Positions 2,539 through 18,273 of a stretch of DNA of 41,767 nt are shown in pieces; the stretch's first letter is position 1; every line of letters starts with the position of its first letter. The stretch covers positions 1 to 41,767 of the forward strand of contig CAZQDQ010000001.1 in assembly GCA_964592455.1 (NCBI GenBank). Reading direction: 5' to 3'. This DNA comes from an uncultured Pseudomonadales bacterium. GTDB lineage: Bacteria > Patescibacteriota > Microgenomatia > UBA1400 > MFAQ01. A model generated the notes under the pieces. That model ran no database searches, had not been told where the DNA came from, and saw only the letters and a program-made list of their open reading frames with translations. The position numbers were made by a program, and so were the translations under genes.

Positions 2539-2539
2539 A

Positions 2540-3517
2540 ATGAAGAAACCAAGCATAACTGTTTGTATTCCAACAAAGAACAGAGAAAAATCTATAGGAA
2601 AAATGCTAAACACTTTGGTTAATCAAAGTTATAAAAACTTCGAAGTTGTTATCGTAGATGGCGGCTCAACAGACAAAACTGTCAGAATAGCTAAATCTTT
2701 CAAAAAAAAGCTCAAAATTAGAATTGTTTACAAAAAAGGAGGTTTAATTCCTCAGATGAATAAGGGGTTAGCGGTAGCAAGGGGCAAAATTTTTGTCAGA
2801 ACAGACGACGATGTTTTAGCTACAAAAAGCTGGTTAAAAACTATAAGTATGGTTTTTGAAAAGGATAGAAGAGTTGGTGGTCTTACAGGCCCAACTGTAA
2901 TACCCAAAAAATACGCCAGATCGCGCGATCTTTTTTATTTTCAAAAAAAACTAAGAAACGGCAACTTTTTTTGGAGGATTCTTGGAGTAATTTACTATGG
3001 ATATTTTATGGAAGGAAAGCCGATGAGGGTTAGCCACTGGTTTAAATCGGGGGCCTTTTCCCTGGGTAGTAATTTTTCAGTCTCAAGAAAAGTAAGATAC
3101 AAAAAGGTTAGCAACTTAGAAGCATGCAATTGGGCTGTTAGAACGAAGTTACTTAAGAGGGTGGGAGGCTTTGATAATAGTTACACAGGCATTGGCGAGT
3201 ATCATGAACCGGACGCATCTTTAAAAATCAGGAAACTTGGATATAAATTAATGTTTCATCCAAAAGCAGAAGTAAACCACTGCCCATCAACAGAGGGTTT
3301 CTTTTCGGAGAGGCCCTTAAGCTACCCAAGGATAATAAACTTTATAATTTTTTACAAAAGACATATTAAAATTAACTCTTTTGACAAGCTTTTAAGATTC
3401 TCAGCCTATTTAATTTTTCAAAATTTTTATTACATTTATCAAGCGGTTAACAAAAGACAGCTAGGCCTTTTGGGTTCAATACCAGGTACGCTCGTGGGTA
3501 TACTTTTTAAATCATAA
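2540..3517 (+). CDS. Glycosyltransferase family 2 (GT-A fold)
   Basis: Motifs: ITVCIPTKNREKSIGKML...FEVVIVDGGSTDKT, the acidic motif RTDDDV, and a GGFD motif. ATGs exist at both 2522 and 2540; the one at 2540 lies just after the upstream stop. Confidence 0.8.
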   Translation: MKKPSITVCIPTKNREKSIGKMLNTLVNQSYKNFEVVIVDGGSTDKTVRIAKSFKKKLKIRIVYKKGGLIPQMNKGLAVARGKIFVRTDDDVLATKSWLKTISMVFEKDRRVGGLTGPTVIPKKYARSRDLFYFQKKLRNGNFFWRILGVIYYGYFMEGKPMRVSHWFKSGAFSLGSNFSVSRKVRYKKVSNLEACNWAVRTKLLKRVGGFDNSYTGIGEYHEPDASLKIRKLGYKLMFHPKAEVNHCPSTEGFFSERPLSYPRIINFIIFYKRHIKINSFDKLLRFSAYLIFQNFYYIYQAVNKRQLGLLGSIPGTLVGILFKS

Positions 3518-4278
3518 TGATTATAAGAGCTAAAAGACTAGATCTCAGGAGGCTAAAAAAGTTTGGATTCCCATCAGACCTTATTTTTAGAGGTACAGAA
3601 CTCAAATTTATTACTAAAGAGTTATCAAAAATTAAACTTGTAGGGCCCTCTCTTGATCTTGGTTGTGGGGATGGATTTCTATGCAGGACGATTTTTAGAG
3701 AAAAATTTGATTATGGTCTAGATAACGACGAAGCTGGAGTAGTTAAAGAAGCGATCAAAAAAAAACGATATAAAAAGGTTATTATTGAATCAGCAACGAA
3801 TATATCTTTACCAAGCAAATCTCTAAATCTAGTTTTTAGTAACAGTGTTGTTGAACATATACCTAACAACTATGGAGTTTTACAAGAGGTTTCCAGGATA
3901 TTAAAAAAAAATGGCTACTTTATTTTTACCTGTCCCTCGGTCTACTTTACTGACTATCTTTCAAAAAACTTTGGTGGAAAATTGTACTCCAAATTGAGAA
4001 ATAGGCAGTTTAACCACTTTCATTTATATGACCACAAAACTTGGAAAAAAAGACTAGCTGCCAGCAAAATGCGCCTAGTTGATTACCGCTATTACATGAA
4101 CGAGACAGACTTGGTATTTTGGGAAAAACTACTATGGCAGCAAAAAATGTACAAATACTTCCCGTCACTTGTTAATAACCCTGTCTACTACCGAAAAGAA
4201 ATAATAAAAAGAATAAAAAAAGCTGTTTCAAGTAAGTATCACGGGGCAAATATATTAATTATTGCCAAGAAGAAATAA
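3517..4278 (+). CDS. Class I SAM-dependent methyltransferase
   Basis: Motif I is LDLGCGDG. The post-I acidic residue and LNLVFSNSVVEHIPN / GYFIFTCP match the Methyltransf_11/25 architecture. The start overlaps the upstream stop (TAATG). Confidence 0.75.
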   Translation: MIIRAKRLDLRRLKKFGFPSDLIFRGTELKFITKELSKIKLVGPSLDLGCGDGFLCRTIFREKFDYGLDNDEAGVVKEAIKKKRYKKVIIESATNISLPSKSLNLVFSNSVVEHIPNNYGVLQEVSRILKKNGYFIFTCPSVYFTDYLSKNFGGKLYSKLRNRQFNHFHLYDHKTWKKRLAASKMRLVDYRYYMNETDLVFWEKLLWQQKMYKYFPSLVNNPVYYRKEIIKRIKKAVSSKYHGANILIIAKKK

Positions 4279-4282
4279 CAGT

Positions 4283-5038
4283 ATGTATTACAAGCAGTTT
4301 AGAAAAGGAAAAAGAATTAAAGCAAAGGCACATTATGGCAATCTGTTCACTGACAAGTATATGGTTTTGAGATTTAATATAAATTACTTTTTTGCTAAAA
4401 AAGTACTCAAAAAATATAAAAGAATTAATGTTTTAGATGTAGGAGGTTATACCGCAGACAATCTCAAATTTTGGAAAAACTCTGGTGAAAAAATAAAAAA
4501 GATTGACTATAATGTTGCTGACTACGACACTGAGGCAGGAAAAATTGCCACCACAAGGGGCGCGAAGTATCACTACTATGATTTAAACTTAGATAATCTT
4601 CTTAAATTATTCCCAAACAAAAAATTTGACCTTATAATTTGCACAGAGGTGCTTGAGCATCTGTTAGACCCACACCGTCAAATGGGATATTTTCTGAGAT
4701 TACTTAAGAGAAATGGCAGGTTAATCATTTCTCTACCCAACGAAAACACCATTTTTCATAGAATCTATGCCTTACTTGGTCTTGGTATCGATCAGTATCC
4801 ATTTGTTTTATACAAACATCTTCACTTCCCAACCATTCAACAATCAGAGACCTTTGTCAAAAACTATTTTTGTCTAATTGACAAAAAATACTATATGAAC
4901 TTCGGTGGTATAGGGTCAAGATTTGCTTTTTTTGGTAAATTATTTAGGCTAATACCAGATAGTGTCTGGCGTACTCTTGTAGATCTTTTTCCTGGATTAT
5001 TGGCTCGCGGTACGGTCTTCTACCTCAGGAAAAAATGA
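4283..5038 (+). CDS. Class I SAM-dependent methyltransferase
   Basis: Motifs: VLDVGGYTADN (motif I-like), DLIICTEVLEHLLDP, GRLIISLPNE. The ATG at 4283 follows the upstream stop at 4278; the track's TTG at 4262 is less likely. Confidence 0.7.
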   Translation: MYYKQFRKGKRIKAKAHYGNLFTDKYMVLRFNINYFFAKKVLKKYKRINVLDVGGYTADNLKFWKNSGEKIKKIDYNVADYDTEAGKIATTRGAKYHYYDLNLDNLLKLFPNKKFDLIICTEVLEHLLDPHRQMGYFLRLLKRNGRLIISLPNENTIFHRIYALLGLGIDQYPFVLYKHLHFPTIQQSETFVKNYFCLIDKKYYMNFGGIGSRFAFFGKLFRLIPDSVWRTLVDLFPGLLARGTVFYLRKK

Positions 5039-5784
5039 TTTTAGAAAAACTAAGACTACTGCTTGAAATATTCTCTCAGGTCAAAAAGCCTTTCACTCTG
5101 TTGAGTTTATGGCTAGGGGTTGGCGGTAACAGTGTTGTCAGCTCAGGAAACACAAAAGCCTATCTTAGAAACAACAAAATTGATTATTGGATATTTCTAG
5201 AAAACATTATCAGTGATACTTATGGACTAAAAAACCTCCGGTATATAAGGTTTGACAACATTATCGACATTGGAGGTAATATTGGTCTGTTCACTATTAG
5301 TACCAAAAAATACTGGCCGAAAGCAAAAAGGGTCATTGTGGAGCCAAACAAAAACTCACTCAAAGTTCTTAAAAAAAACTTAAAACTAAACAAAATTAAT
5401 GCTATCACAACGAACAAAGCTGTTATCGGTAGTCAAAAGAAAAAATCGATTAAACTTTATTTAAACGAAAACCCAGCCATGTCATCGCTAACAAACTCAG
5501 CAGGAAAATACATTAAAGTAAGAACAGTCAGCATAAACCAAATAATTCCAGAAACTGGCAACACACTGGTAAAAATAGACATAGAAGGTGGTGAGTATAG
5601 TCTCCTAACAAAGAAGAATAAGTCCACTTTTAAAAAAATTGACGTATTATTAATGGAGACCCACGATCTTGGCAATAAAAAGAATAGTAAACATGTCGTA
5701 AACTGGCTAAAAAAAATTGGTTTTAGGGTCTACTATGAAAACAGAAGCATCACAGCCATCAGCACCACTAAAGCTAATTTCTGA
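5035..5784 (+). CDS. FkbM-family methyltransferase
   Basis: IIDIGGNIGLFT, LKKNLKLNKINAITTNKAV and IDIEGGEYSLL are the hallmark blocks of the FkbM (Methyltransf_21) family. There is an ATGA overlap with the upstream gene. Confidence 0.75.
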   Translation: MILEKLRLLLEIFSQVKKPFTLLSLWLGVGGNSVVSSGNTKAYLRNNKIDYWIFLENIISDTYGLKNLRYIRFDNIIDIGGNIGLFTISTKKYWPKAKRVIVEPNKNSLKVLKKNLKLNKINAITTNKAVIGSQKKKSIKLYLNENPAMSSLTNSAGKYIKVRTVSINQIIPETGNTLVKIDIEGGEYSLLTKKNKSTFKKIDVLLMETHDLGNKKNSKHVVNWLKKIGFRVYYENRSITAISTTKANF

Positions 5785-7792
5785 AATTTTATTCGTCATT
5801 TTTGTTTGTTTTATCTTTATTCGATCAGTATTTTTAAATAATGGACAGATTGGCCATAATTGGGACTTTACTTTTCCTTATTTTACCTCCAGTCACAACA
5901 ACATAAACTTTCTTTCGGCCTATACCTGGAATAGCTCAAACTTGGGCTATCAACAGCACCTAACAGCCGCACATCTAATTCCTAATTTTATTTACTCACA
6001 ACTTGTATTTTTCTTTGGTAATGTACTAGCTAGTAAAGTGCTTTTGCTAATTATTTTGGTCTTTTCAGTATTTGGATTCGCTAAATTTTCAAACCTATTT
6101 TTTTTAAGCAAGAATAGAGCTATTCCTCTGGTTCTGGGTTTCTTATATACCTTTAGCCCCTTTCTCTTTAATGAAATAGTTGGTGGGTCTTGGTATATGT
6201 GGCTTTCATATTCCTTTATCCCGTGGTACATATACTCGATTAATCAATTTTTTTCTGGCAAAAAATACTTTTTATTTTCTAGTTTAGTATTCTCTAACTT
6301 AGTTGTTTCCTCTCTTCAAAACTTTGTCTTGGTTCATGGATTAGCAATGATTTATTTTTTAGTGGTAAATGATGGCTTTAAACAGCAACTTGTTAGATTT
6401 TTTAAGTTACACTTTTTTCTCTTTATTACTAACTTTTATTGGATAGCTTTGACTTTAAGTATCGTTTTTAATTTAGCAAGCCATTATTCGTCAGTTGGAT
6501 TTACCAGTCAATTTGAACAAGTAAGAAGTAGCAGTCAAAACCTGGTTTCTATTTTTAGCTTGTACGGTTACTTAAATAGAGATTTTTATCAACAAACTCT
6601 TCCGCATGGCATCTGGATTACTTACTTACTAATTGTTTGCCTTGTTTGGGCTACTGGGATTACTTTGCTTTTTACCAAAAACAAAATAAGGGACAAAAGA
6701 ATCTTGTTATTTATATTGCTATTGTGTCTCATGTTCCTAATTGCTAAGGGGGGGAATTACCCATTCCCAAAATTTACTCTTTTCCTATTCAAAAACATTC
6801 CCTTTATGTCTCTTTACCGTAGTCCACAACACCTAATGCTGGCTGTCACAGGCGTTTTCTTAATTTTGCTAGTTTTAGTAACCAAGGCATGTAATCAAAA
6901 ATATGGTCCAAGACGAACCACCTTTTTTTTATCACTGTTCCTGGCCGTATACTCTTATGGATGGTGGTCTAACGGCGATCTAGGCCACAAAGCAATGTCT
7001 CCTAGCGGAAGGGATTATGTAGATTACTACTCCTTAGACCCTTATTTGGTTAGCAGTATTAGTTTTGCAGAATCAGGTAAGGGTAGTACCCGCCATTTAT
7101 TTTTACCAATCACCCAAAGCCCGCTATACATGCAGACTAATTATCAGAAGTCAGCACAGGGGGGCATATCAGAGTACATGTACCTAGTAACTCCAACCTT
7201 TAGCGCTGAGTCTAGTGCTGCTGGAAGGGAAATAGAAGCTGCTCTTTGTAACTCAGAAGCTAAAAAGTTCGAGTCGCTTTTATCCAAGTATTCCATAGGT
7301 TACATAACTTTGAGATATGACGTAATACCAATATTTACAAGTTGCTCTAAAGATTGGAGCGCACAAAATACCTATAACATCTTAGAGAAAATTAACATCT
7401 TAGAAAAAATTAATACAGGGGGGAATGTCGTTCAATACAAAGTAAAGAACCCAAAAAAAGTTATAAGTTCCAAAGAAAGCACTGAAATCAGAATTGAAAA
7501 AAAGAATCCTATTCAGTATGAATTTGTTATAGAAGACACACAGTCACCCTCAGAAATAGTCTTGAATGAAAACTTTAGTAAATTTTGGGTAATAAAGGAT
7601 AGTTCGGGAAAAACGATATCTAAGTCAACAAATATTGACGGTCTAAATCACTTTAAAGATTTAAAAGTGATTCCAGGAAAAAAGCATACGATATACTTTT
7701 CCATGCAAACCACTTTTATTATTTTTCTTATTATCTCAATAGTTGGTGGAATAACATCACTATATTTATCTACAAGTAAAAATGAAAAGTAA
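5735..7792 (+). CDS. Large polytopic membrane protein of about 685 aa. It has an N-terminal multi-TM bundle, a hydrophilic extracytoplasmic domain of about 230 aa and a C-terminal TM anchor. Possibly a YfhO/GT-C-like glycosyltransferase.
   Basis: Many hydrophobic segments occur through about residue 420. A hydrophilic region follows (GDLGHKAMSPSGRDYVDYY...), and the final helix is FIIFLIISIVGGITSLYLS. The architecture resembles YfhO/AftD-type GT-C proteins, but I recognise no diagnostic motif with certainty. The ATG at 5735 overlaps the upstream gene by 50 nt. Confidence 0.4.
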   Translation: MKTEASQPSAPLKLISEILFVIFVCFIFIRSVFLNNGQIGHNWDFTFPYFTSSHNNINFLSAYTWNSSNLGYQQHLTAAHLIPNFIYSQLVFFFGNVLASKVLLLIILVFSVFGFAKFSNLFFLSKNRAIPLVLGFLYTFSPFLFNEIVGGSWYMWLSYSFIPWYIYSINQFFSGKKYFLFSSLVFSNLVVSSLQNFVLVHGLAMIYFLVVNDGFKQQLVRFFKLHFFLFITNFYWIALTLSIVFNLASHYSSVGFTSQFEQVRSSSQNLVSIFSLYGYLNRDFYQQTLPHGIWITYLLIVCLVWATGITLLFTKNKIRDKRILLFILLLCLMFLIAKGGNYPFPKFTLFLFKNIPFMSLYRSPQHLMLAVTGVFLILLVLVTKACNQKYGPRRTTFFLSLFLAVYSYGWWSNGDLGHKAMSPSGRDYVDYYSLDPYLVSSISFAESGKGSTRHLFLPITQSPLYMQTNYQKSAQGGISEYMYLVTPTFSAESSAAGREIEAALCNSEAKKFESLLSKYSIGYITLRYDVIPIFTSCSKDWSAQNTYNILEKINILEKINTGGNVVQYKVKNPKKVISSKESTEIRIEKKNPIQYEFVIEDTQSPSEIVLNENFSKFWVIKDSSGKTISKSTNIDGLNHFKDLKVIPGKKHTIYFSMQTTFIIFLIISIVGGITSLYLSTSKNEK
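7376..7411 (+). repeat. In-frame 18-bp tandem duplication (2 copies, 1 mismatch) inside the 5735-7792 CDS
   Basis: AACATCTTAGAGAAAATT (7376-7393) is followed by AACATCTTAGAAAAAATT (7394-7411). Together they encode NILEKI-NILEKI. Confidence 0.9.
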
Positions 7793-9353
7793 GTTTGTTA
7801 CCATTGTAATTTTTTTCATTTGCTCCTTATACTTTTCTTTGTCACTAAATAAATCTGGGTTTCATTTACTAAGTTATGACCAAATTGGCAAAAAATCGGA
7901 AATCGTATTTGCTGAAGGACAACCATTACTTTCAGGTCAGGAGGTGGTTATCAAAACCAAAGCTGAATACAACAATTTGGGCAACATTTTAATTAGGTTT
8001 ACAAACAATGATCGAGATAGTGATGACCAATTAAGTTTTCGTTTGCATGACAGAAGTTTGAATAAAGAAATTTATTCCGCAGTCTATAACACCGATCAAT
8101 TTTTACCAGATGAATTTTTCCCATTCGGTTTTTTACCTATAGCGGACTCCAAAGACAAAGAGTACTCGGTCATAATAGAGTCATTAAACGGAAGCAGTCA
8201 AAGCGGTATTTACATATCAACCAAAAACCCAATTTTTGTTTTTCGCAGCATTTTAACTAAAGCCGAAGTTACAAAAAATCCTTGGCAACTATTAGAAATC
8301 ATACTTAGCAAAATAAAGTTTATTTTATCAAGTTATCAGCAAATCCTATCGCTACTAATTTCATATTCACCACTAGTTCTTTACCTCTTATTCACTTCTT
8401 TTAGTAGGTCCGCACCTATTTACCAAATAGTTGTCTTTGTTGTATCAACATGTTTTCTCTTTGTGGTAAACGGTGGGCAGCAGGACTACCTGTTAATATC
8501 ATTATCTATTTATTGGTTTGCTTTAAATATTTTTAGAGGTTTTCCAGACACAGCTAATCTAACATTCTTTTTTTTCTACTTTATTTCTGGTTTCATTTTT
8601 AACATTTTTAATTTTAGTTTTTACGCCAACACATCCTTCTCTCTAGGGTTAATGTTACTTATAACTTTTTTAGCCGCAAAGGTTCTTTTTTCAGAAAAAA
8701 AAGACAGCAAAACTCTAAGCAATTTCCTAAAAGATCTAAATAACTTTGAAAGAGAATCAGGTTTTAACTCAGCAAACATTATGATTTTTTTAGCCAAATT
8801 TATTTTTTATACGGTTATTCTTAAAAATGCGATTTACAGTTTTATGCAAATAGTTTCTATTCCAAAGACTTTAGCGGATTACCCAAGACTCTATAGTAAA
8901 GAGGCTCTCTCACTTCTTGTATTTGCTGTTTCTTTAATAATTGCCTACAAAATTGTGTATTTTTTAATAAAAAAAACTAAAGGTAGTTTTGTTTTTTATC
9001 CTTTACTTTATCTTGTTTTACATCTTTACTTTTTGGTCAATAGCAACATCTACGCCTATGTAATTAGTCACACATTGTTTCCAAAAATAATATCAATCAA
9101 TCCAAGCATCACTTCCGAGGCCTGGGTAGACGTTACTATCACTGGCAAAAATTTCCAAGACTTGCCCTTTGTTGGCAAGGTTACCCTGGCAGGGGAGGTT
9201 CAAGTAGAAAATGTCCACTACTGGTCCAACGAAAAAATAATCTTCCGCACTAACCCCACAACTACCAAAACTGGAGAGGTCTGTGTTCAAACTCTGTCAA
9301 AGGGTAATAGCAACTGTCTGCCTTTTGAGTACCACTTCGATGGTAAGAAATAA
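7782..9353 (+). CDS. Polytopic membrane protein. It has an N-terminal extracytoplasmic domain, a multi-TM core and a C-terminal IPT/TIG (Ig-like fold) domain.
   Basis: The N-terminal TM is FVTIVIFFICSLYFSLSL. A hydrophilic segment of about 165 aa follows, and then several TM segments. The C-terminal 90 aa (nt 9081-9353) read PKIISINPSITSEAWVDVTITGKNFQDLPFVGKVTLAGEVQVENVHYWSNEKIIFRTNPTTTKTGEVCVQT, which fits the IPT/TIG consensus pattern (P.I.sI.P......v.ItG.nF......v..g......v......i.......G.v.v). Confidence 0.6.
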   Translation: MKSKFVTIVIFFICSLYFSLSLNKSGFHLLSYDQIGKKSEIVFAEGQPLLSGQEVVIKTKAEYNNLGNILIRFTNNDRDSDDQLSFRLHDRSLNKEIYSAVYNTDQFLPDEFFPFGFLPIADSKDKEYSVIIESLNGSSQSGIYISTKNPIFVFRSILTKAEVTKNPWQLLEIILSKIKFILSSYQQILSLLISYSPLVLYLLFTSFSRSAPIYQIVVFVVSTCFLFVVNGGQQDYLLISLSIYWFALNIFRGFPDTANLTFFFFYFISGFIFNIFNFSFYANTSFSLGLMLLITFLAAKVLFSEKKDSKTLSNFLKDLNNFERESGFNSANIMIFLAKFIFYTVILKNAIYSFMQIVSIPKTLADYPRLYSKEALSLLVFAVSLIIAYKIVYFLIKKTKGSFVFYPLLYLVLHLYFLVNSNIYAYVISHTLFPKIISINPSITSEAWVDVTITGKNFQDLPFVGKVTLAGEVQVENVHYWSNEKIIFRTNPTTTKTGEVCVQTLSKGNSNCLPFEYHFDGKK

Positions 9354-9413
9354 CTTGATTTCTTCTGGTATCTTCCAATATTTTCTAATATTATCTAAAG
9401 TGTAAAATAAACT

Positions 9414-10811
9414 GTGGCTTGGATAAAAAAATATTTTTACCTTTTTCCTGTTTTATTTTATTTACCTGCGCTTGGTAACTTCTTTTCAGCTGACGACTGG
9501 TTTCATCTTCGTATCTCCCAAATAGACTCGCTTGAGCAGTTTTTTAACTTTTTTTCTTTTAGCCAAACCCCGCAATCCGCCAGCTTCTACAGACCTCTCT
9601 CAACTCAAGTTTTCTTTTTTATCTTCCAAAAGTTCTTTGGTTTAAATTCCGTTGCTTATTATTTGTTTGGTCTACTACTCTTTGGCTACTCAATATATCT
9701 CGTCAGAAAATTCAGCTCTTTATATCTGAGAACTGAGATCTGTAATCTAGCATCTATTATTTATGGACTATCTGCCTCAAACTTTACCAGACTTTACTTT
9801 GTTTCTGCTTTTCAAGAGTTATTTTTGGTAGTTTTCTCTCTTCTGACTTTAATTAACTTCAAGTCCAGGCCAAAGCTATCCCTTCTTTTTTTTGTTTTAG
9901 CTCTGCTTTCCAAAGAAACCGCCATCGTCCTCCCAGTCTTAGTTCTTCTCCTAAATTATAAATACATAGTTGCTAACAAGTTTAACAATCTGAGATCTGA
10001 GATCTTGGTATCTGTGATCTATTTGTATTTTAGGTTTTTTCATTTTGGTCTAGTCACAGGCGATAGTTATTTGTGGGACTTCTCACTAGTCAAAGCGGTC
10101 AATACGCTAATGTGGTATGTTCTTTGGTCTATTGGCTCGCCAGAACTGCTAGTAGACTACATTGGCTCCGGCCTAAAGCCAATACCCAGATTCTTTGTCG
10201 ATTATGCAAGCTGGTGGCCATTTATTGTTTTTCCACTTTTAGCAATCATTATCTCCACCATTACTATTTTCTTAAAAAACTTTAAAAAGTTAAACTCTTA
10301 TTTTTGGGTATTTACTTTGTTTTTTGTTATTAGCCTTTTGCCAGTTTTATTTCTGCCATCGCACAAGTTTGCACTAGAACTTGGCCTGCCATTAGTGGGT
10401 TTTGCTATTGCACTCTCAATCTTAATTAAAAAGTCAAACAATATTTTTTATTTTGTGTTTTTGGGAATTTTTATTTTTTACAATTTATCGATGAACTACC
10501 TAACTTACACCCGCCACTACTCAGTCAGTAGGGGACAGATCTCCAAAAATGTCTATCAATTTATTAATCAAAATTACCCTTCTCCTCCAGAAAATAGTTA
10601 CTTTGAATTCATAAACGATGCTCAAGATTACGGTCCCATCTGGGGGCAGTCAAAGCAGATATCCCAAAGCCTAAGCAACTCCGATTTTTTCAAAGTCTTC
10701 TATCATCAACCAGACTACATGGTTTATTATCAAGATGAGGTTGATGATAAACCATCTACAACCGGTTTTGCACCAATAGAACTTAGTACCAAGCAATTTT
10801 TAAACCAATGA
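9414..10811 (+). CDS. GT-C-fold membrane glycosyltransferase candidate (PMT/TMTC/YfhO-like)
   Basis: 465 aa with at least 10 hydrophobic segments. The acidic first-loop motif FSADDWFHL (D27-D28) sits directly after TM1, followed by FYRPLS, as seen in PMT/TMTC-type GT-C proteins. It starts at GTG 9414; there is no nearby ATG. Confidence 0.55.
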   Translation: MAWIKKYFYLFPVLFYLPALGNFFSADDWFHLRISQIDSLEQFFNFFSFSQTPQSASFYRPLSTQVFFFIFQKFFGLNSVAYYLFGLLLFGYSIYLVRKFSSLYLRTEICNLASIIYGLSASNFTRLYFVSAFQELFLVVFSLLTLINFKSRPKLSLLFFVLALLSKETAIVLPVLVLLLNYKYIVANKFNNLRSEILVSVIYLYFRFFHFGLVTGDSYLWDFSLVKAVNTLMWYVLWSIGSPELLVDYIGSGLKPIPRFFVDYASWWPFIVFPLLAIIISTITIFLKNFKKLNSYFWVFTLFFVISLLPVLFLPSHKFALELGLPLVGFAIALSILIKKSNNIFYFVFLGIFIFYNLSMNYLTYTRHYSVSRGQISKNVYQFINQNYPSPPENSYFEFINDAQDYGPIWGQSKQISQSLSNSDFFKVFYHQPDYMVYYQDEVDDKPSTTGFAPIELSTKQFLNQ

Positions 10812-12484
10812 CCAACAAATACAAAGCCGCCATTATTTTACTTTTTATTTTTTTTGGGGTTGGTTTTTTTCTTAGGGTTTATCGTCTAAATCAAAATGTT
10901 CCAGAGCTTTATTCTGACGAAGTAGGTCACTATTACTATTTAGAAAGCATTAGAAATGGGTCTGTGGGTTTAATTAGGCGTATTTCATATCTCTTTTTTA
11001 CAGCCAGCTGGCTTGTTGGCCTCAACCCTTTGGGTGTCCGTCTAGCTTCAGCCATTTTTGGATCACTAACTATTATCGTCGGTTTCTTCTTTGCAAAAGC
11101 TTTAGCAAAAAAATCACAAACCAATCTTTACCTTCGTGTCGCCCTCACTTTTAGTCTTCTTCTGGCTATTCTCCCGTGGAATTTTGCCATCAGTCGCCTT
11201 GGTCACACTCACATCCCTATTATTGTTTTTACGAGCCTTTTACATCTCTACCTCTATTTATCTGCTACCAAAACCCTCCCAAAAATTATCTCTTTTATTC
11301 CTTTCTTAATCGGCTCCTACTATTATCCAACCCTTATTCTTATGTCACCCTTAATTCTATTAATCCCTGCCAAACAGCTTTTTTGGGACAGTCAAAAAAA
11401 TAGAAAGCTAATTTTTTTAGCATCCATTATCTTTTTAGGGGTTACTAGTTCTTTTTTGGTCACCAAGTATAAAGTCTTTAACACCAGCTCCCGCGGCTTA
11501 GACCTTGCCATATGGCGCGATGTCAATGTTACCGCCGACTCAAATCTTTACCGAGGGCTAGCTAGGTCTAGTGTTCCTTCTATTTTTTCTTTTGGCAAAG
11601 ATCCAGAACAACTCTCTAACAAGATTCTCTATAACTACCCACTATCAATAATATTTAAATTCACCGAAAACTATTTATCTTTCTTCTCAGTTGACTCTCT
11701 CTTTTTAAGGGGTGACCCTATCTTGCGCCACTCCACCAGCATGACTGGCAATTTTTACTTATTTCTACTGCCATTTCTAATCTATGGTCTTTACAAGTTT
11801 TTTTCAGGTAAAACCGACAGACAGACAAAACTACTTATTACCCTCTGGTTGCTTGCTTCACCAATACCAGCCGCAATCACCAAGGATGGAGCCGGTTACT
11901 TGCTGCGCTCCATTAGTCTCTACCCACTTCTTACCTATTTTTGTGCTCTTGGTCTTGTTTATTCTTTAGAATTTTTTCAAAACAACTTTTCCAAAGTCAT
12001 TTACTTTGCCACTATATCAGTCATCGGCACTTTTTCTGTTTTTTACTATTTCTTTGGCTACTTTCATGTTTACCCAAGTTTAGCCAAAGACAGTTTTGAA
12101 TATGGCTTCAAAGCCTTGTCAGACTTTCAGCAAAATAATAAGTCTAAACTCCTCATTATTTGGGAAGATAAATATCCATATAGTCAATTCTGTTTTTGGC
12201 AAAAATTACCCTATTCTGTTTGTGACCCATCCAAAACCGATACCAGAGAATACTTGGGTGAAACCCGGGTAGATCTTCCCTCTCAAAGTATTTTCTTTAG
12301 TTTGCCAAGTACAGAAAGCGACCTGAAACAAGTAGTCAAAAAATACCAACCAGACTACGTTGCTTTATCTACTAGGTTTTTAGAAAACTATCCAAAATTC
12401 TTCCTAAACTACCAAGTAATCGAAACTATCAAAAATCCAGACGACACAGTTAGTTTCTTTATTTACCAATCTTCAGAAAAATAA
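10808..12484 (+). CDS. GT-C-fold membrane glycosyltransferase, ArnT/PMT_2 (GT39/83)-like
   Basis: 558 aa and polytopic. TM1 is followed by FLRVYRLNQNVPELYSDEVGHYY (D37-E38), the family's characteristic first-periplasmic-loop DE motif. The C-terminal third is hydrophilic. ATGA overlap with the upstream gene. Confidence 0.7.
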   Translation: MTNKYKAAIILLFIFFGVGFFLRVYRLNQNVPELYSDEVGHYYYLESIRNGSVGLIRRISYLFFTASWLVGLNPLGVRLASAIFGSLTIIVGFFFAKALAKKSQTNLYLRVALTFSLLLAILPWNFAISRLGHTHIPIIVFTSLLHLYLYLSATKTLPKIISFIPFLIGSYYYPTLILMSPLILLIPAKQLFWDSQKNRKLIFLASIIFLGVTSSFLVTKYKVFNTSSRGLDLAIWRDVNVTADSNLYRGLARSSVPSIFSFGKDPEQLSNKILYNYPLSIIFKFTENYLSFFSVDSLFLRGDPILRHSTSMTGNFYLFLLPFLIYGLYKFFSGKTDRQTKLLITLWLLASPIPAAITKDGAGYLLRSISLYPLLTYFCALGLVYSLEFFQNNFSKVIYFATISVIGTFSVFYYFFGYFHVYPSLAKDSFEYGFKALSDFQQNNKSKLLIIWEDKYPYSQFCFWQKLPYSVCDPSKTDTREYLGETRVDLPSQSIFFSLPSTESDLKQVVKKYQPDYVALSTRFLENYPKFFLNYQVIETIKNPDDTVSFFIYQSSEK

Positions 12485-14248
12485 ATGAGTTTTCTTAAAA
12501 AAAACTGGGCATACTTAGCAGTTGTTGTCTTTGCTCTTTTTTTAAGACTCTACAAATTGTCAGAAATTCCATCCGCGCTATACTATGACGAAATTGATTT
12601 GGGCTATCAAGTTCAATCCTTAAAGCAAACAGGTAAAGACTATAGGGGAGAATTTAGCCCTTTTTACTTTCGGTCTTTTAATACCGATAAGACTCCGCTT
12701 CCCATTTGGTTTTCGCTCCCCTTTAGCTATCTACCGGTTTCACCAGAGATTCAGGTAAGAGCAGGAACAGCCATAGCTGGGGTGTTTGTTGTTCTCTTGG
12801 CAATGAGCATAAGCAAACTTCTGTTTGGCAGTATTTCCACAACTATAATCACCGGTATTATTTTCGCCAGCTCGCCCTGGCTTATCCACTTTAGCCGCCT
12901 TGCTTTTGAGGCTCAGTTTGCTTTGCTTGGTCTATTTTCTTTCTTGTGTCTTTTTTTAGTATGGCAAAAGATCAACAGATACAAATACTTTTATCTTTCC
13001 TCACTGGCTCTTGGGCTCTCTGTCTACACTTACAGAACTATGAGTTTGCTATCCCCACTACTGGCGGGTGTAACTTTTGTTTTGTTTTATAAACAAATAC
13101 TTAAGTTGGGTTTTAAAAAAATATTAGTTGCTCTTATTGTGTTTGCCACGTTGTATTTTCCATTTGTCTATACAACTACCATAGGAGCTAAAGATCAAAC
13201 CAGAATTAGTCAAATATCAATTTTTTCCGACCCCAAAATCCCCATAGAGGTTCAAAGGAGTAGAGAGCTGGTTTCTGGAAACTTTGCAGATTCTTCGCTA
13301 GGTCAGTCGGCAACACTTCAATCTAAAATATTTCACAATAAAGCACTAACTTACATAGACAGATTCGTAAGTAATATTTTAAATAATTTTTCTGCTAACT
13401 TTCTCTTCTTAATAGGGGATAGCAACGGTAGACATTCAGCCAAAAACACCGGCGAGTTATTGTTAATAGACTTAGTTGCTCTTGTTGTTGGTTTCTATAC
13501 TTTACTTGGATTATTAAAAGATAAAAAAGTTGTTTTACTCCTTTTAGTGCTTTTCTTGGGGACTGTACCGGCCAACCTTACTCTAGACGGGGCCAATCAT
13601 GCCTCTCGGCTGATTACTTACGCTGGTCCCTTGCTCCTTGTAGTTGGACTGGGTTACAGCAAAATCTTAAACTTCTTGCAAAAAATAAAGTATGGCTGGT
13701 TGTTAAAACTTATTCTTATTCTCACTTGGATTTTTATTCTTACCCGTTTCTTAAATGTATATTTTTATCACTTTCCCATTACAAATGCCCGCGAATTTGG
13801 ATACGGATATAAGCAGGCGATACAAAAGATTGAAGAATATAAAAACAGTTTTGACAAAATTTATCTTACTGGTGTAAATGATCCTCCCATGTTGTATTAC
13901 TTTTTTTGGTCAAAAACCAACCCTGATCTGGTTCAAGAATACGGTACAGAATATGGTGACAATATCGTTAAGAACCATGAATTAGACAGAGTCAAACCTT
14001 TTTACCCCACTGATCTCTTGTGTAAGGAAAAAGAAATCGAAAAACTAAGCCCCAAAGCTATTTATATGGTCGATTTCAGAAACTTACCACTCGACTTTCG
14101 CAGTAGTGACAAAGACAAAGCTCCACAAGGCATAAAACTCCTCGACGTTGTTAAATATCCCGATAACGAAGTAGCTTATTATCTTGTAACCAGAGACACC
14201 AAAGAGGGAAAAGTAATTTCCCCAATCAAAGGCCAGTCCTGTAAATAG
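12485..14248 (+). CDS. GT-C-fold membrane glycosyltransferase, ArnT/PMT_2 (GT39/83)-like; paralogue of 10808-12484
   Basis: 587 aa and polytopic. FLRLYKLSEIPSALYYDEIDLGY (D35-E36) has the same layout as the preceding gene, and there is a C-terminal hydrophilic domain of about 170 aa. Confidence 0.7.
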   Translation: MSFLKKNWAYLAVVVFALFLRLYKLSEIPSALYYDEIDLGYQVQSLKQTGKDYRGEFSPFYFRSFNTDKTPLPIWFSLPFSYLPVSPEIQVRAGTAIAGVFVVLLAMSISKLLFGSISTTIITGIIFASSPWLIHFSRLAFEAQFALLGLFSFLCLFLVWQKINRYKYFYLSSLALGLSVYTYRTMSLLSPLLAGVTFVLFYKQILKLGFKKILVALIVFATLYFPFVYTTTIGAKDQTRISQISIFSDPKIPIEVQRSRELVSGNFADSSLGQSATLQSKIFHNKALTYIDRFVSNILNNFSANFLFLIGDSNGRHSAKNTGELLLIDLVALVVGFYTLLGLLKDKKVVLLLLVLFLGTVPANLTLDGANHASRLITYAGPLLLVVGLGYSKILNFLQKIKYGWLLKLILILTWIFILTRFLNVYFYHFPITNAREFGYGYKQAIQKIEEYKNSFDKIYLTGVNDPPMLYYFFWSKTNPDLVQEYGTEYGDNIVKNHELDRVKPFYPTDLLCKEKEIEKLSPKAIYMVDFRNLPLDFRSSDKDKAPQGIKLLDVVKYPDNEVAYYLVTRDTKEGKVISPIKGQSCK

Positions 14249-14268
14249 TTTAGTGTAAAATGCCTATT

Positions 14269-15297
14269 ATGAGTAAACAAAAAACTGCAGTCATTATTGG
14301 AGTTAGCTCGCAAGATGGATCTTACTTGGCTGACCTACTACTTACCAAAAACTACAAAGTTGTTGGTACTATTCGTCGATCTACTACCATGGTCCACGAA
14401 AACATCGAGCATTTAAAAGGAAAAATAATTATCACTGCAGCTGACCTTACCGATCAGGAATCTTTAAATAGAGTCATAATCGAACACAATCCAGACGAAG
14501 TTTACAACATCGCCGCCCAATCCGTCCCCGGCGATAGTTGGAGCCACCCCATTTACACTGGGGAAGTCACTGCGTTGGGACCAGTTCGGGTTTTTGAAGC
14601 CGTCAGACGTTTTGCTCCCAAAGCCAAAGTCTATCAGGCAACTTCCAGAGAAATTTACGGTGGCGTTGAAGGGGTGGAAAGTGCCAACGAAAAAACACCT
14701 GTTTTTGCCAATAACCCTTATGGTATCGCCAAGGCCTATGCCCATATGATGATTGATTGTTATCGAAAATCATACGGTATGTTTGTTTGTGGCGGTATGC
14801 TTTTTAATCACGAGTCACCAAGGCGTGGACTACACTTTGTTACTCGCAAAATCAGTATGGGTGTTGCCTGTATCAAATTGGGAATTAAAAACCCACCCAT
14901 AAATGAATTAGGCGAACCGCTGGTTGACAATAGCGGCAAAATTCACTTAGGTGACTTAGATGCCATGCGCGACTGGGGTTACTCCAAAGAATATGTAGAG
15001 GCCATGTGGCTTATGCTTCAGCAAGACACACCCAAAGACTACGTCATTGGCACCAATACCAATTACTCTATCAAAGATGCTTGTAAGGCAGCCTTTGACC
15101 ATGTTGGTCTAAAATGGGAAGAGCACGTTATTTCTAACCAAAAACTAATCAGACCAACAGAAATAACCGACATGAAAGGGGACTATAGTCTAGCCAAAAA
15201 GGAGCTGGGTTGGGAGCCAAAAGTTTTTATGCCAGAACTGATGGCAATTATGGTTGACGCCGACATTGACTGGCTTAAATCCCATAATGTAAAATAA
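14269..15297 (+). CDS. gmd: GDP-mannose 4,6-dehydratase
   Basis: AVIIGVSSQDGSYLADLLL, YNIAAQS, YQATSREIYG, PYGIAKAYAH (YxxxK) and LFNHESPRRG are all canonical Gmd blocks. The ATG at 14269 (MSKQKTAVIIG) is preferred over 14260. Confidence 0.9.
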   Translation: MSKQKTAVIIGVSSQDGSYLADLLLTKNYKVVGTIRRSTTMVHENIEHLKGKIIITAADLTDQESLNRVIIEHNPDEVYNIAAQSVPGDSWSHPIYTGEVTALGPVRVFEAVRRFAPKAKVYQATSREIYGGVEGVESANEKTPVFANNPYGIAKAYAHMMIDCYRKSYGMFVCGGMLFNHESPRRGLHFVTRKISMGVACIKLGIKNPPINELGEPLVDNSGKIHLGDLDAMRDWGYSKEYVEAMWLMLQQDTPKDYVIGTNTNYSIKDACKAAFDHVGLKWEEHVISNQKLIRPTEITDMKGDYSLAKKELGWEPKVFMPELMAIMVDADIDWLKSHNVK

Positions 15298-15300: not shown

Positions 15301-16302
15301 ATGTCAGAACGACCAAAAATCTTCATCCCAGGTGAAACAGGTACATTGGGTCGTGGTGCTAACTTCGGCTTAAAAAATAAGTACGAATTGTTAGCTGGCA
15401 CAGCAAAAGAACTAGATCTTTCACTTGATGAAGGTTTTAGATATTTTGATTTTCTAAATCCTGACTCGCTCGAGCAAACTATAAAAAATGGTAATTTTGA
15501 TGTCATTTTAAATTTAGCGGGAGTGGCTAATCCAAACACTGCATCTGAGCAGGCAAAAATTGCTTGGCAAATAAACTGCTACGGTGTTTTGAAAATGTTA
15601 GATATTATTTCTAAAATGCCAATTGGACATAGACCAAAAGTAGTTTTACCTATGTCAGTACTTCAGTTTGATATCCAATCTTCTGGCACGGTTGACATTG
15701 ATCACCCTCTGAAAGCTTCTGGCAATGAGTACATTAATCAAAAAAACACTTTGTTCCATGAGGCTAAAAAGTTTTTAAAAGATGTAGATATATATTTCGC
15801 TTTTATTGCGAACACTACTGGTTACGCTCACCCAGAGGGTTACTTTGGACCGGATATTATGAGACAGTTAGTTAGAGGTGATAGTATTATTAAGCATGGT
15901 GACTTAGATCAAAAAAAGCCCTTTTTAGACTCTAGAAACGCTGGTCGAATACTAGCCTGCGCAATAAAAAATATGGGGAATGGTGGGCAACTTAGCATCG
16001 GAGATTCCTTTTTCATCGCTAGCGGTACAAATTTCCACATGATAGATTTTTTCAAAACAATGCAGAGAGTTGCCGGTAGAGTTGATGATTCTGAGTTAGA
16101 CGATCAAGATGATCCAAGGTTTGGCCAAAAAGCAAAAATTAAGGAAATAAAGTTCAACACGCAGATGTTAACCAAAATGGGTTTTAAGGAAGTTGGTGGA
16201 ATGGAATACATTGCTCAGTCACTTTATGAAGAAGCAATTAGAGTTAAGAATGGTTTGCCATTGCCACCGCGAGGGATATCCAAAAAACTTGAGGTAAGAT
16301 AG
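15301..16302 (+). CDS. Divergent extended-SDR (NAD(P)-dependent epimerase/dehydratase family). Candidate GDP-4-keto-6-deoxymannose reductase or epimerase-reductase.
   Basis: It has the N-terminal glycine-rich motif IPGETGTLG and a YxxxK motif (YINQK) at about residue 144. It lies immediately downstream of gmd. The sequence is too divergent to assign fcl versus rmd. Confidence 0.5.
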   Translation: MSERPKIFIPGETGTLGRGANFGLKNKYELLAGTAKELDLSLDEGFRYFDFLNPDSLEQTIKNGNFDVILNLAGVANPNTASEQAKIAWQINCYGVLKMLDIISKMPIGHRPKVVLPMSVLQFDIQSSGTVDIDHPLKASGNEYINQKNTLFHEAKKFLKDVDIYFAFIANTTGYAHPEGYFGPDIMRQLVRGDSIIKHGDLDQKKPFLDSRNAGRILACAIKNMGNGGQLSIGDSFFIASGTNFHMIDFFKTMQRVAGRVDDSELDDQDDPRFGQKAKIKEIKFNTQMLTKMGFKEVGGMEYIAQSLYEEAIRVKNGLPLPPRGISKKLEVR

Positions 16303-16306: not shown

Positions 16307-17563
16307 GTGAACAAAATTTTGGCTGTTTTTAAAACCCAAACCATCAAAGATGGGTTTTTGATGGGTTTAGGCACCTTCTTTACTGCTTTTTTTGGTTTTT
16401 TATTCACCATTATCATGGCCAGGAGCCTGTCTCCAGAAAAATTTGGAGTCTTTTCTGCTCTAACTTCGCTTGTTGCCATACTCTACAGTTTGGGTGACCT
16501 GGGTATAGGGCCAGCGATAATAAACTTTCTACCGCGTCACAGAAACCAAGAAACAAAAATAATTAGTACCAGTTTTTGGTTTCAATATGCTGTAGGTCTT
16601 GTTGTGGCCATAGGTTTATGGTTGATAGCAAACCAAAACAACATCATTATCCCAGGGTCATTACCTGGTCACTTTTACTTAGTAGGTTCTTTGTGCTTCA
16701 ATTACATCCTTATCGGCTGGGCCCAGTCTGTCTTAACAGCCAAAAGAGACTTTTTGCGGATTTCGCTAAGTCAGATTATTGATTCAGTAATCAAAATAAT
16801 TCTTGTTTACTATCTATACACTGATAGTGGTTTAAGTATTTCTCTTGCTTTAGCCGCTAACGCCTTATCTGTCTGCATCGCTCTTTTCCTTATTTTTAGC
16901 AAAGAATTAATTGTTGTCCCTTTAAAGTTTGACAAAAAAACATTTGTCAACCTCTTTCATTTTTCAAAATGGATAGCTTTATCTAGATTTTTTTCTGTAT
17001 TTTATTCCAAAGTAGACATTCTTTTGCTCAATCTGTTAGGAACCAGTTTTCAGGCAGGAATCTTTGCTGCCTCAAGCCGGATCACTCTTCTGTTTGCCAT
17101 TATTGTTTCTAGTTTAGGTTCAGTTATAAACCCCAGGTTTGCCCATTTCACACTCAGAAAGGACTTTTTAAACTATTCCAAAAAAGTTTTTTTACTTATC
17201 TCTGGCTTAGCAGTCATACTGTTATTAACAGTTCTATTTGCAAAGCCAATTGTTGTCTTTGTTTTTGGTGAAAAGTTTTCGGAATCTATTAAGGTTTTTC
17301 AGCTTCTTAGCCTGTCGATGATCCCTTTTCTTTACAGCGCTATTTTTACTGCTGCCACACTTTATACTTTTCAGATTCCGTCTTTTTATGCTTTTCTAAC
17401 CTTTTTAAATCTAGGGATAACAGTGGTGGCAAACCTGATTTTAATCCCTAAAATCGGCTACTTTGCCCCTATTTATGGCTCTTTGATAGGAAACACCACC
17501 TGTTTAATTTTAAGTGCTTGGAAAGTAAAACAGCTCTACCATAGCAGTCCTCTTTTAAAATAG
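16307..17563 (+). CDS. Polysaccharide/oligosaccharide flippase, MOP superfamily (Wzx-like)
   Basis: 418 aa with about 12 hydrophobic segments. The N-terminus (IKDGFLMGLGTFFTAFFGFLFTIIMARSLSPEKFGVFSAL) is typical of the Polysacc_synt/Wzx family. It starts at GTG. Confidence 0.7.
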   Translation: MNKILAVFKTQTIKDGFLMGLGTFFTAFFGFLFTIIMARSLSPEKFGVFSALTSLVAILYSLGDLGIGPAIINFLPRHRNQETKIISTSFWFQYAVGLVVAIGLWLIANQNNIIIPGSLPGHFYLVGSLCFNYILIGWAQSVLTAKRDFLRISLSQIIDSVIKIILVYYLYTDSGLSISLALAANALSVCIALFLIFSKELIVVPLKFDKKTFVNLFHFSKWIALSRFFSVFYSKVDILLLNLLGTSFQAGIFAASSRITLLFAIIVSSLGSVINPRFAHFTLRKDFLNYSKKVFLLISGLAVILLLTVLFAKPIVVFVFGEKFSESIKVFQLLSLSMIPFLYSAIFTAATLYTFQIPSFYAFLTFLNLGITVVANLILIPKIGYFAPIYGSLIGNTTCLILSAWKVKQLYHSSPLLK

Positions 17564-18265
17564 GTTGTATTTAATCACACACCACAGCGCCCAAAAACCA
17601 TCTTTCCAGCCTATTTTTTTACCTTGCTCATATTTTCTCCCCTTGTAGCTGATACCTATTTCGTACAGTCTGCAATTCATTTTTGCTATTTTTGCTGTTA
17701 CTTCTGGCTCAAAACCAAATCTATTTTCGTTTATTTTTACTCTCTTAATTACTTTTGTTCTAAAAACCTTATAACCAGTCTCCATATCGGTAAGATTAAG
17801 GTTGGTAAATGCGTTAGAAACCAAAGTTAAAAACCTGTTAGCTACCATGTGCCAAAAAAACAGTACTCTATGTGGTTGACCTCCCATAAACCGCGACCCA
17901 TAAACGACATCGGCGTACCCCAGTCTTATTGGCCTAACCAGTTTTCTGATTTCTCTTGGAGAATATTCCAGATCAGCATCCTGTATAACTACAGCTTGGC
18001 CTGTTACCCTTTTCAATCCCGCTCTAATTGCCGCCCCCTTCCCTCGATTAATACTCAGTCTAACGACCTTAATAGTTACTCCATACTTTTCCCTTTTTCT
18101 TTTAAAATTTTTAATTTCTTTGTATGTTCCATCTATAGATCCGTCATCTACAACTATAATTTCCTTCTTTAAACCATCAATTTTAACTTTAACTAGCGCA
18201 GAAAGTGTTTTTTTAATAAAACGCTCCTCGTTAAAAACTGGAACTATAATCGAGATTTTTTTCAT
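17555..18265 (-). CDS. GT2 polyprenyl-phosphate sugar synthase (DPM1/ALG5/GtrB-like)
   Basis: Motifs: ISIIVPVFNEE...IIVVDDGSIDGT, INRGKGAAIRAGL, QDADLEY, VVYGSRF, LTDMETGYKVF, FGFEPEVTAKI, ISYKGRKYEQGKKIGWKDG. This block order is characteristic of the dolichyl/undecaprenyl-phosphate glycosyltransferase subgroup of GT2. The ATG at complement(18263-18265) is preferred over the track's GTG at 18292. Confidence 0.75.
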   Translation of the reverse strand: MKKISIIVPVFNEERFIKKTLSALVKVKIDGLKKEIIVVDDGSIDGTYKEIKNFKRKREKYGVTIKVVRLSINRGKGAAIRAGLKRVTGQAVVIQDADLEYSPREIRKLVRPIRLGYADVVYGSRFMGGQPHRVLFFWHMVANRFLTLVSNAFTNLNLTDMETGYKVFRTKVIKRVKINENRFGFEPEVTAKIAKMNCRLYEIGISYKGRKYEQGKKIGWKDGFWALWCVIKYNLF

Positions 18266-18273
18266 GAAAAAGC

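Follow-up and report, generated by a model that had tools for sequence, protein, structure and literature searches.

Several described systems resemble the locus treated here. Multi-component transmembrane glycosylation systems, such as GtrA/GtrB/Gtr*, CsbB/GtcA/YfhO, GtlA/GtcA/GtlB, GacI/J/K/L and Citrobacter ORF15/14/12, are recognized by a polyprenyl-phosphate-sugar synthase of the glycosyltransferase A fold (GT-A), a flippase, which is either of the GtrA type or, as in the case of GacK, of the Wzx type, and a polytopic glycosyltransferase of the C fold (GT-C), one outer loop of which carries an acidic motif (PMC8035078; PMC11127046). In mycobacteria EmbC, EmbA and EmbB, encoded at the embCAB locus, as well as AftA to AftD use decaprenyl-phosphate-arabinose as donor (PMC2610374). 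AftD is a protein of ~1,400 aa with three periplasmic carbohydrate-binding modules (CBMs) and a C-terminal four-helix bundle which binds acyl carrier protein, and the residues K39 and D41 of its first loop are essential (bioRxiv 10.1101/2019.12.22.885152). Here we describe a stretch of 41.8 kb (41,767 bp, ~35% G+C), in the following called the window, from an uncultured member of the Patescibacteria. Nearly all of its genes lie on the plus strand, and five consecutive ones, A to E, encode large membrane proteins. The best explanation as a whole, to which we assign a probability of about 65%, is that this block accounts for the extracytoplasmic half of a large locus for cell-surface glycans, in which several GT-Cs would decorate an acceptor outside the membrane from a lipid-phosphate-linked sugar. 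The genes which carry this reading are the following.

5717-7792, plus strand: A, predicted AftD-like GT-C fold glycosyltransferase (AlphaFold2 and Foldseek), 691 aa from a TTG start at 5717 or 685 aa from an ATG at 5735, the start being ambiguous
7782-9353, plus strand: B, putative accessory membrane protein of 523 aa (Pfam TIG, AlphaFold2, Foldseek)
9414-10811, plus strand: C, putative PMT_2-like GT-C glycosyltransferase of 465 aa (hhalign and the PMT_2 matches of its relatives)
10808-12484, plus strand: D, putative PMT_2-like GT-C of 558 aa, paralogue of E and constant partner of C (BLASTP against E)
12485-14248, plus strand: E, putative PMT_2 family GT-C of 587 aa with invariant D35-E36, a variable extra paralogue (Pfam PMT_2, 28.0 bits)
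17555-18292, minus strand: candidate polyprenyl-phosphate-sugar synthase of 245 aa, a family 2 glycosyltransferase (GT2) of the dolichyl-phosphate-mannose synthase (DPMS)/GtrB/ArnC type
25121-26548, plus strand: H, putative PMT_2 family GT-C of 475 aa, the fifth GT-C of the locus (Pfam PMT_2, 26.5 bits)

Like the multi-component systems, the locus contains a GT2 synthase and polytopic GT-Cs with an acidic motif in a predicted extracytoplasmic loop, and a Wzx protein is a candidate for the flippase; a putative polyprenyl-phosphate-sugar synthase of the GT-A fold is thus encoded together with GT-Cs (17555-18292). The genes are set in or beside a Wzx/Wzy polysaccharide locus, and GacK is a precedent for the use of a Wzx-type flippase. 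Unlike these systems, in which one synthase is combined with one GT-C, the window has five predicted GT-Cs from two families and one recognizable synthase. It also differs by the constant, translationally coupled pair C-D and by the accessory protein B with its CBM-like and IPT domains, as well as by the lack of GtrA and of transmembrane (TM) helices in the synthase.

The GT-C enzymes of the gene block

The sequence-only reading, an earlier look at the letters of this DNA and a list of its open reading frames (ORFs), had described five back-to-back genes for polytopic proteins, at least three of which were thought to be GT-Cs. The ORFs are indeed found there on the plus strand and are tightly packed: A and B overlap by 11 nt, B and C are separated by 60 nt, C and D overlap by 4 nt, D and E abut, and gmd starts 11 nt 3' of the end of E. 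Such overlaps and abutments are typical of a single operon. A minor inconsistency concerns A, for which the sequence-only reading gave the start at 5735 together with a length of 691 aa, which belongs to the TTG start at 5717. Each of the five proteins contains at least eight strongly hydrophobic segments of 19 residues in a Kyte-Doolittle scan, which bears out their polytopic character, and the proteins encoded at 18285-19574 and 23820-25124 are polytopic as well, as had been claimed. The peptide motifs singled out earlier are all present at the positions given for them: FSADDWFHL begins at residue 24 of C (acidic pair D27, D28), LYSDEVGHYY at residue 34 of D (D37, E38), LYYDEIDLGY at residue 32 of E (D35, E36) and SLRLYKIDNPIADWHSFRQADT at residue 15 of H.

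That C, D, E and H are of the GT-C type is supported by profile-HMM and profile-profile comparisons. The Pfam model PMT_2 (PF13231) comprises ArnT, GtlB and PMT-like GT-Cs, and its gathering cut-off of 26.1 bits is passed by E and H. C and D themselves score below this threshold, the window protein C giving no Pfam match, and are linked to PMT_2 through homology. D and E are similar over their full length (BLASTP 2e-17, 24% identity). PMT_2 is matched by two of 18 D homologues (best 3.7e-7), by seven of 29 close C relatives (best 1.7e-9) and by 12 of 38 distant ones (best 4e-9). In hhalign a diverse C profile aligned with the D+E profile at 96.1% (E 3.2e-9, 342 columns) and H with the same profile at 94.9% (E 4.3e-8, 285 columns). 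The close-homologue profile of C gave a weak alignment with D (38.8%), and the relationship became convincing only with the diverse C profile against D+E. Based on the PMT_2 scores, the similarity of D and E, the PMT_2 matches of the relatives and the profile alignments we place C, D, E and H in the same PMT_2-like superfamily of GT-Cs. The C family alone comprises 347 cluster representatives at E<1e-30. Three of its members (P0216 of 1064 aa, P0262 and P0338) carry long extra regions, which in P0216 extend ~600 aa beyond the GT-C domain; none of these regions has a match in the window.

An acidic pair close to the N-terminus would be trivial in a single sequence. Since the aspartate is invariant across homologues, it is more than chance. 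D27 and D28 of C are invariant in 29 close and 38 distant relatives with 23-45% identity, and in the 38 divergent relatives the same holds true for R60, P61, Y219, W238 and H317. In D residue D37 is invariant and E38 nearly so (18 relatives), and D35 of E or the equivalent aspartate is invariant in all 23 aligned sequences of the D and E families. Judged by the identity among the C relatives, this invariance would span hundreds of millions of years of divergence. On family average a short N-terminal tail with two to three Lys/Arg and almost no Asp/Glu is followed by TM1 and then by the net-acidic segment with the motif. Under the positive-inside rule this arrangement places the tail inside and the motif outside the membrane, so that charge bias and homology argue for an outward orientation. 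The conservation expected by the sequence-only reading was borne out in the relatives sampled, and the predicted orientation agrees with it. Each of the proteins A, B and E has a conserved cysteine pair in its hydrophilic domain (C511/C543, C501/C512 and C513/C586, respectively), which agrees with an extracytoplasmic location.

Protein A had been left out of the earlier GT-C count. From its N-terminus it comprises TM1, a first loop bearing the invariant G46-H47-N48-W49-D50 and a polytopic core, followed by a periplasmic domain (~420-660) and by one TM helix at the C-terminus. The best PDB match of its AlphaFold2 model (pLDDT 91.4, pTM 0.91) in Foldseek is AftD (6w98_A, E 7.4e-10, TMq 0.52, 635 columns), followed by STT3B (2e-5 and 8e-5), ArnT (8.4e-4) and ALG12 (7.5e-3). 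All matches at E<=0.001 are GT-Cs. Because the model is confident and its significant PDB matches are solely GT-Cs, A is by its predicted fold a GT-C enzyme, which belongs to another family than C, D, E and H; hhalign found no similarity between A and D. The estimate of at least three GT-Cs among the five proteins therefore holds, with four (A, C, D and E) in the block and five in the locus when H is included, while B does not belong to them. In the Pfam scan the window protein A gave no match. The model GT-C_AftD (PF11847) is weakly matched by eight of 39 A homologues (best E 3.5e-4), not by A itself. Residues D50, K344, R368, W416, G420, D421 and G423 are invariant or nearly so, D50 within the motif G-H-N-W-D being invariant in 39 relatives. 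A has about half the size of AftD (691 aa), one periplasmic domain and one C-terminal TM helix, and it contains neither the three CBMs nor the bundle which binds acyl carrier protein. As the AftD architecture is absent, we regard A as a protein with an AftD-like fold and not as an AftD orthologue.

The W416-G423 region of A is part of an invariant GWWxxGDLG motif (residues 412-424), located where the membrane core meets the periplasmic domain. STT3, PglB and AglB have their WWDYG motif at a comparable position. Together with the structural match of A to STT3B and to the C-terminal globular domain of AglB (3vu0, Foldseek probability 0.99), and with a locus glycan that is started by a phosphoglycosyltransferase and flipped by Wzx, this motif would agree with an en-bloc transfer, in which one or several of the GT-Cs, especially A, use an oligosaccharide linked to polyprenyl diphosphate and act as oligosaccharyltransferase, ligase or polymerase. 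However, AftD is clearly the best structural match of A (TMq 0.52 vs 0.39), WWDYG is not reproduced, the first loop contains a single Asp instead of DxD, and none of the A relatives matches Pfam STT3, in contrast to the eight which match GT-C_AftD. Moreover, the conserved synthase of the DPMS type favours monosaccharide-phosphate donors, and a protein with a Wzy_C domain already fills the role of a polymerase or ligase in this locus. We thus consider en-bloc transfer to be improbable.

A transporter or structural function of these membrane proteins, with acidic motifs that coincide by chance, was also weighed. It would be in line with the lack of own Pfam matches for A, C and D, with TIG as the sole match of B, which appears to be non-enzymatic, and with a weak NCBIfam match of A to the lipid delivery protein MmpA (1.4e-6, far under its cut-off). 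Against this stand the GT-C evidence for A, C, D, E and H and the invariance of the acidic residues at 23-45% identity, and transporter folds match the model of A only at TMq ~0.1. Such a function is hardly credible, and the doubt, which the sequence-only reading had itself raised, is largely refuted for these five proteins.

The probable accessory protein B and the likely donor synthase

Protein B begins with TM1 and a conserved beta-sandwich (residues ~30-160); the polytopic region behind it is poorly conserved, and the IPT/TIG domain at the C-terminus (434-517) gives the sole Pfam match of the protein (TIG, 7.4e-6). In Foldseek its AlphaFold2 model (pLDDT 79) matches IPT/Ig domains as well as beta-sandwiches such as those of CBM6, CBM4, xylanase CBMs and BcsB. 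No GT-C is found among these matches, and hhalign gave no similarity between B and D. As modelled, B is not a GT-C. Conservation is high in the N-terminal beta-sandwich (R72, F73, N75, R78, D79, S80, D82, Q106, F107 and others) and in the IPT domain, and both domains are probably situated outside the membrane. B is probably an accessory protein that binds the acceptor; a separate acceptor-binding partner was previously speculated for small GT-Cs (PMC8035078).

The genomic surroundings were compared in 23 loci from GTDB species genomes which encode a C relative (L001 to L023). A B-like protein, either full-length or short, is encoded within ~4 kb upstream of C in 11 of them. Short versions are found 5' of C in six loci (L005, L006, L007, L014, L017 and L021), in some directly adjacent and in others at a distance of 1-3 kb, and full-length B precedes C in five further loci. 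In one protein, P0162, the N-terminal domain of B is fused to an A-type enzyme. The N-terminal beta-sandwich, for which no Pfam model exists, defines a family of short membrane proteins of ~300-366 aa with the invariant signature RFxNxxRDSxD...QFxP...FG. Examples are encoded at L005:9007-9987, L007:7871-8830, L017:5293-6318 and 8802-9878 and L021:6242-7255; such genes are found either 5' of the gene for a C-type GT-C or immediately 3' of one for an A-type enzyme.

A gene that the sequence-only reading had overlooked is located on the minus strand at 17555-18292, where it lies antisense and takes up precisely the space left between wzx and the gene that follows. The encoded GT2 (Pfam Glycos_transf_2, 6.3e-33) has its best PDB match in the Dol-P-Man (dolichyl-phosphate-mannose) synthase of P. 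furiosus (5mlz, 1e-21, residues 2-226 and thus nearly full length), and the next matches are GtrB sll0501 (1e-14) and ArnC (2e-13); the best solved relatives are all polyprenyl-phosphate-sugar synthases. The top NCBIfam matches are AglJ, PgfS, PpgS and ArnC. In eight of the 23 loci this gene is kept on the opposite strand downstream of wzx, together with C-D-(gmd)-wzx and with 50-67% identity. A related GT2 (44% identity, 2.6e-54) also occurs fused to a GT-C of the C family (1e-34) in the protein P0322 (698 aa). The GT2 encoded at 17555-18292 is likely to make the lipid-linked donor of the GT-Cs, for which synteny and fusion point to a putative polyprenyl-phosphate-linked sugar. On the plus strand a shadow ORF (17849-18172) overlaps the synthase gene.

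Other GT2s were also considered as donor synthases. None of the four on the plus strand of the window is a clear equivalent of GtrB, ArnC or DPMS. A GT2 is fused to the A-type enzyme in at least four protein clusters (N-terminally in P0144, P0148, P0159 and P0177); these domains best match the window GT2 encoded at 2522-3517 with 28-31% identity. When they were evaluated as DPMS, chondroitin synthase and GalT1-type GT2s scored higher, and therefore this fusion does not identify a second donor synthase.

Conservation of the cassette and the remaining locus

The homologues derive from metagenome-assembled genomes (MAGs) of Woesebacteria, Collierbacteria, Shapirobacteria and other Patescibacteria, by which the organism of the window is judged to be Microgenomates-like. 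D follows immediately 3' of C in 15 of the 23 loci; a D match is also present after C in L008 and after a truncated C match in L022 and L023. A gmd homologue with 45-93% identity follows C-D in eight loci (L001, L004, L005, L006, L007, L009, L016 and L021) and is directly adjacent in five of these (L001, L005, L009, L016 and L021), and wzx is found downstream of C-D-gmd in nine loci. E follows C-D only in L002, L003, L004 and L012. A is restricted to L017, which contains two copies with a short B-like gene after each, and, more distantly, to L007. The five genes had been proposed for a check as a conserved block, and as such they are not kept. What is kept is C-D, accompanied by B-like genes, gmd, wzx and the donor-synthase GT2. 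The conserved core in Microgenomates is (B-like)-C-D-gmd-SDR-wzx, SDR standing for short-chain dehydrogenase/reductase, with the synthase on the opposite strand, whereas E and a module of GT2, methyltransferases, A and B are optional.

Directly 5' of C-D the locus L017 carries the genes for two methyltransferases, a GT2, A, a B-like protein and again A and a B-like protein, a set similar to the upstream module of the window. The upstream module of GT2 and methyltransferases travels with the A-type GT-Cs. In L017 (186-2856) a GT2 and two S-adenosylmethionine (SAM)-dependent methyltransferases are encoded ahead of the A-type GT-C, while the window has three methyltransferases (2522-5784). The methyltransferases ahead of A suggest O-methylated sugars. 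The records of related MAG contigs (L001-L003, L006, L008, L012, L018, L023 and others) are labelled Pseudomonadales or Gammaproteobacteria, one of them Spirochaetia and one Nitrospirota. Because the gene content matches that of Microgenomates loci, this taxonomy is probably wrong.

The other genes assigned in the window are listed below.

2522-3517, plus strand: GT2 (Pfam)
3517-4278, 4262-5038 and 5035-5784, plus strand: three SAM methyltransferases (Pfam)
14260-15297, plus strand: gmd, GDP-mannose 4,6-dehydratase (Pfam GDP_Man_Dehyd 3.4e-96, NCBIfam gmd 7.5e-91)
15301-16302, plus strand: second SDR, an epimerase/reductase, conserved next to C-D
16307-17563, plus strand: Wzx/MOP flippase (Pfam Polysacc_synt_3 2.8e-20, Polysacc_synt 5.3e-20)
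18285-19574, plus strand: F, polytopic protein of 429 aa
23820-25124, plus strand: G, protein with Wzy_C domain, O-antigen polymerase or ligase type (Pfam Wzy_C 1.8e-14, 54.2 bits)
30860-31927, minus strand: ManC, mannose-1-phosphate guanylyltransferase (NCBIfam GMP_PMI 3.1e-43)
31963-32613, plus strand: initiating polyprenyl-phosphate phosphoglycosyltransferase (NCBIfam EPS_sugtrans 2.8e-73, Pfam Bac_transf 1.8e-58)
36041-36469: MraZ, dcw cluster
36466-37401: RsmH, dcw cluster
37395-37676: FtsL-like small protein, dcw cluster
37681-39360: FtsI-type penicillin-binding protein, dcw cluster
39386-39754: DgkA/undecaprenol-kinase-like protein, dcw cluster
39759-40784: MraY, dcw cluster
from 40786, running off the window end: FtsW/SEDS gene, dcw cluster

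According to its Pfam and NCBIfam matches this is a large surface-glycan locus, which further holds GT4 and GT2 enzymes and a WcaF-like acetyltransferase. gmd and the second SDR are predicted to supply a GDP-6-deoxyhexose; an assignment of the SDR to fucose, rhamnose or talose was attempted, and none was supported. ManC would supply GDP-mannose, and the phosphoglycosyltransferase would start a glycan of the Wzx/Wzy type. The Wzx protein is the sole flippase candidate in the window. F gave no Pfam or NCBIfam match and a weak alignment with the C family (hhalign 72.6% over 148 columns); it is possibly a Wzy-like polymerase or a distant GT-C. In L001 and L002 its gene adjoins that of the synthase, in L018 the distance is ~2 kb with F on the downstream side, and the N-terminus of the protein shows the conserved signature EFxLYPY...G..PY. 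Directly after the initiating phosphoglycosyltransferase a DUF4012 protein of 621 aa with one N-terminal TM helix is encoded (32630-34495). RecO (34497-35033) and then the dcw cluster occupy the sequence up to the window end (34497-41767). No tRNA and no Rfam family was found in the window.

Proposed route, known systems and meaning

In the route which we propose for the decoration of an extracytoplasmic acceptor, the GT2 encoded at 17555-18292 would take a single sugar from a nucleotide sugar and load it onto polyprenyl phosphate at the cytoplasmic face. Because of ManC, gmd and the DPMS affinity of the synthase, a GDP-sugar would be most likely, with either mannose or the 6-deoxyhexose product of the neighbouring gmd and SDR as the sugar. 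The lipid-phosphate-sugar would then be flipped by Wzx or another flippase, and the five GT-Cs might each transfer the same sugar to a different position of the acceptor outside the membrane. This acceptor would most likely be a Wzx/Wzy-type polysaccharide, synthesized by the phosphoglycosyltransferase, the GT4 and GT2 enzymes and the Wzy_C protein of the locus. The genes of C and D are constant neighbours with coupled translation, and the two proteins may act as a pair. B would be non-catalytic, and its extracytoplasmic beta-sandwich and IPT domain would probably bind the acceptor glycan for the partner GT-C.

Several observations weigh against this route. The synthase has no predicted TM helix and therefore may need a membrane partner, and the window yielded no small ORF resembling GtrA. 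That Wzx flips a lipid-phosphate-sugar is argued by analogy with GacK, and the protein could equally serve the repeat unit. The fusion of synthase and GT-C is represented by a single protein on one 104-kb contig, and the GT2 domains that occur in fusion with A homologues are closer to common Leloir GT2s than to DPMS. In the PDB both single-sequence searches (A, C and E) and profile searches (families of C, A, D and D+E) gave chance matches, for instance to antibody light chains and dynein, and sequence alone therefore cannot tie these families to solved GT-Cs. The assignment of C, D, E and H was made from sequence and profile evidence. Members of PMT_2 glycosylate proteins, lipid A or polymers, and family membership leaves the acceptor unfixed; the assignments of sugar, acceptor and reaction are predictions from sequence and models.

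Since proteins are among these acceptors, protein O-glycosylation has to be considered, in which C, D, E and H would be PMT-like (protein O-mannosyltransferase-like) and transfer mannose from polyprenyl-phosphate-mannose to Ser/Thr of secreted or S-layer proteins. PMTs (GT39) and their Dol-P-Man or Ppm1 synthases share with the window a core of the PMT_2 clan, the Asp-Glu of the first loop (D37-E38 in D, D35-E36 in E) and a DPMS-like synthase. E and H match PMT_2, E weakly matches the PMT model PF02366, a Dol-P-Man synthase is the best solved match of the GT2, and ManC is encoded in the locus. PMTs are described as obligate dimers (PMC12705809, PMC7759382), which would fit the constant C-D pair; dimeric action could be a parallel. 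However, the PF02366 score of E stays under the cut-off (20.0 vs 22.7 bits) and the Pfam scan detected no MIR domain in any window protein. A Wzx/Wzy polysaccharide locus surrounds the genes, and similarity to carbohydrate-binding or Ig-like modules is seen both in B and in the periplasmic domain of A, as would be expected for a glycan acceptor. The PMT_2 family also includes ArnT as well as glycosyltransferases of teichoic acids, GtlB among them (PMC8035078). Protein O-glycosylation is hence possible, though unlikely.

The mycobacterial assembly of arabinan and mannan offers another comparison for the decoration of a glycan from lipid-linked monosaccharides. There, as in the window, several GT-C paralogues occur side by side, which in mycobacteria use one lipid-phosphate-monosaccharide donor for different linkages outside the membrane. 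The predicted fold of A is closest to AftD, and carbohydrate-binding modules accompany the catalytic core. In contrast, C, D and E are PMT_2-like and not Emb-like, the window donor would depend on a DPMS-type GT2 instead of the mycobacterial route derived from phosphoribosyl pyrophosphate, and the organism has no mycolate envelope. On the model of the mycobacterial systems one may speculate, as a rather doubtful extension, that the cassette does more than decorate a polymer and uses a polyprenyl-phosphate-monosaccharide directly to build, outside the membrane, a major glycopolymer or lipoglycan of the envelope which is specific to the lineage, with C-D as a heterodimeric GT-C, B as the subunit which holds the glycan, and perhaps polyprenyl-phosphate-6-deoxyhexose as donor. 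We know of no description of such a donor.

The earlier statement that no characterized system has this architecture was overstated in view of the multi-component systems, of embCAB and of Xanthomonas and Bacillus loci in which several candidate GT-Cs have been noted (PMC11127046). In its proposed mechanism the cassette resembles the known multi-component transmembrane glycosylation systems, and it reveals no new kind of mechanism. New are the lineage concerned, how many GT-Cs there are for one synthase, the constant pairing of C with D and the dedicated accessory protein B, and it is also new that A, B, C and D score under the reporting threshold on current Pfam models (B outside its TIG domain). 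In the literature searched we found no description of this cassette or of GT-C arrays in Patescibacteria (Candidate Phyla Radiation, CPR).

The envelope glycans of the Patescibacteria are almost uncharted, yet it is their surface which contacts the host cells many of them depend on. Several unannotated families, of which that of C is the large one described above, now gain a predicted fold and a plausible reaction, and a likely donor synthase, a candidate acceptor-binding subunit and a conserved cassette are defined. If the proposed route holds, the locus would be a case in nature where numerous GT-Cs draw on a single donor pathway, with the separate acceptor-binding partner that until now was speculation for Gram-positive systems.

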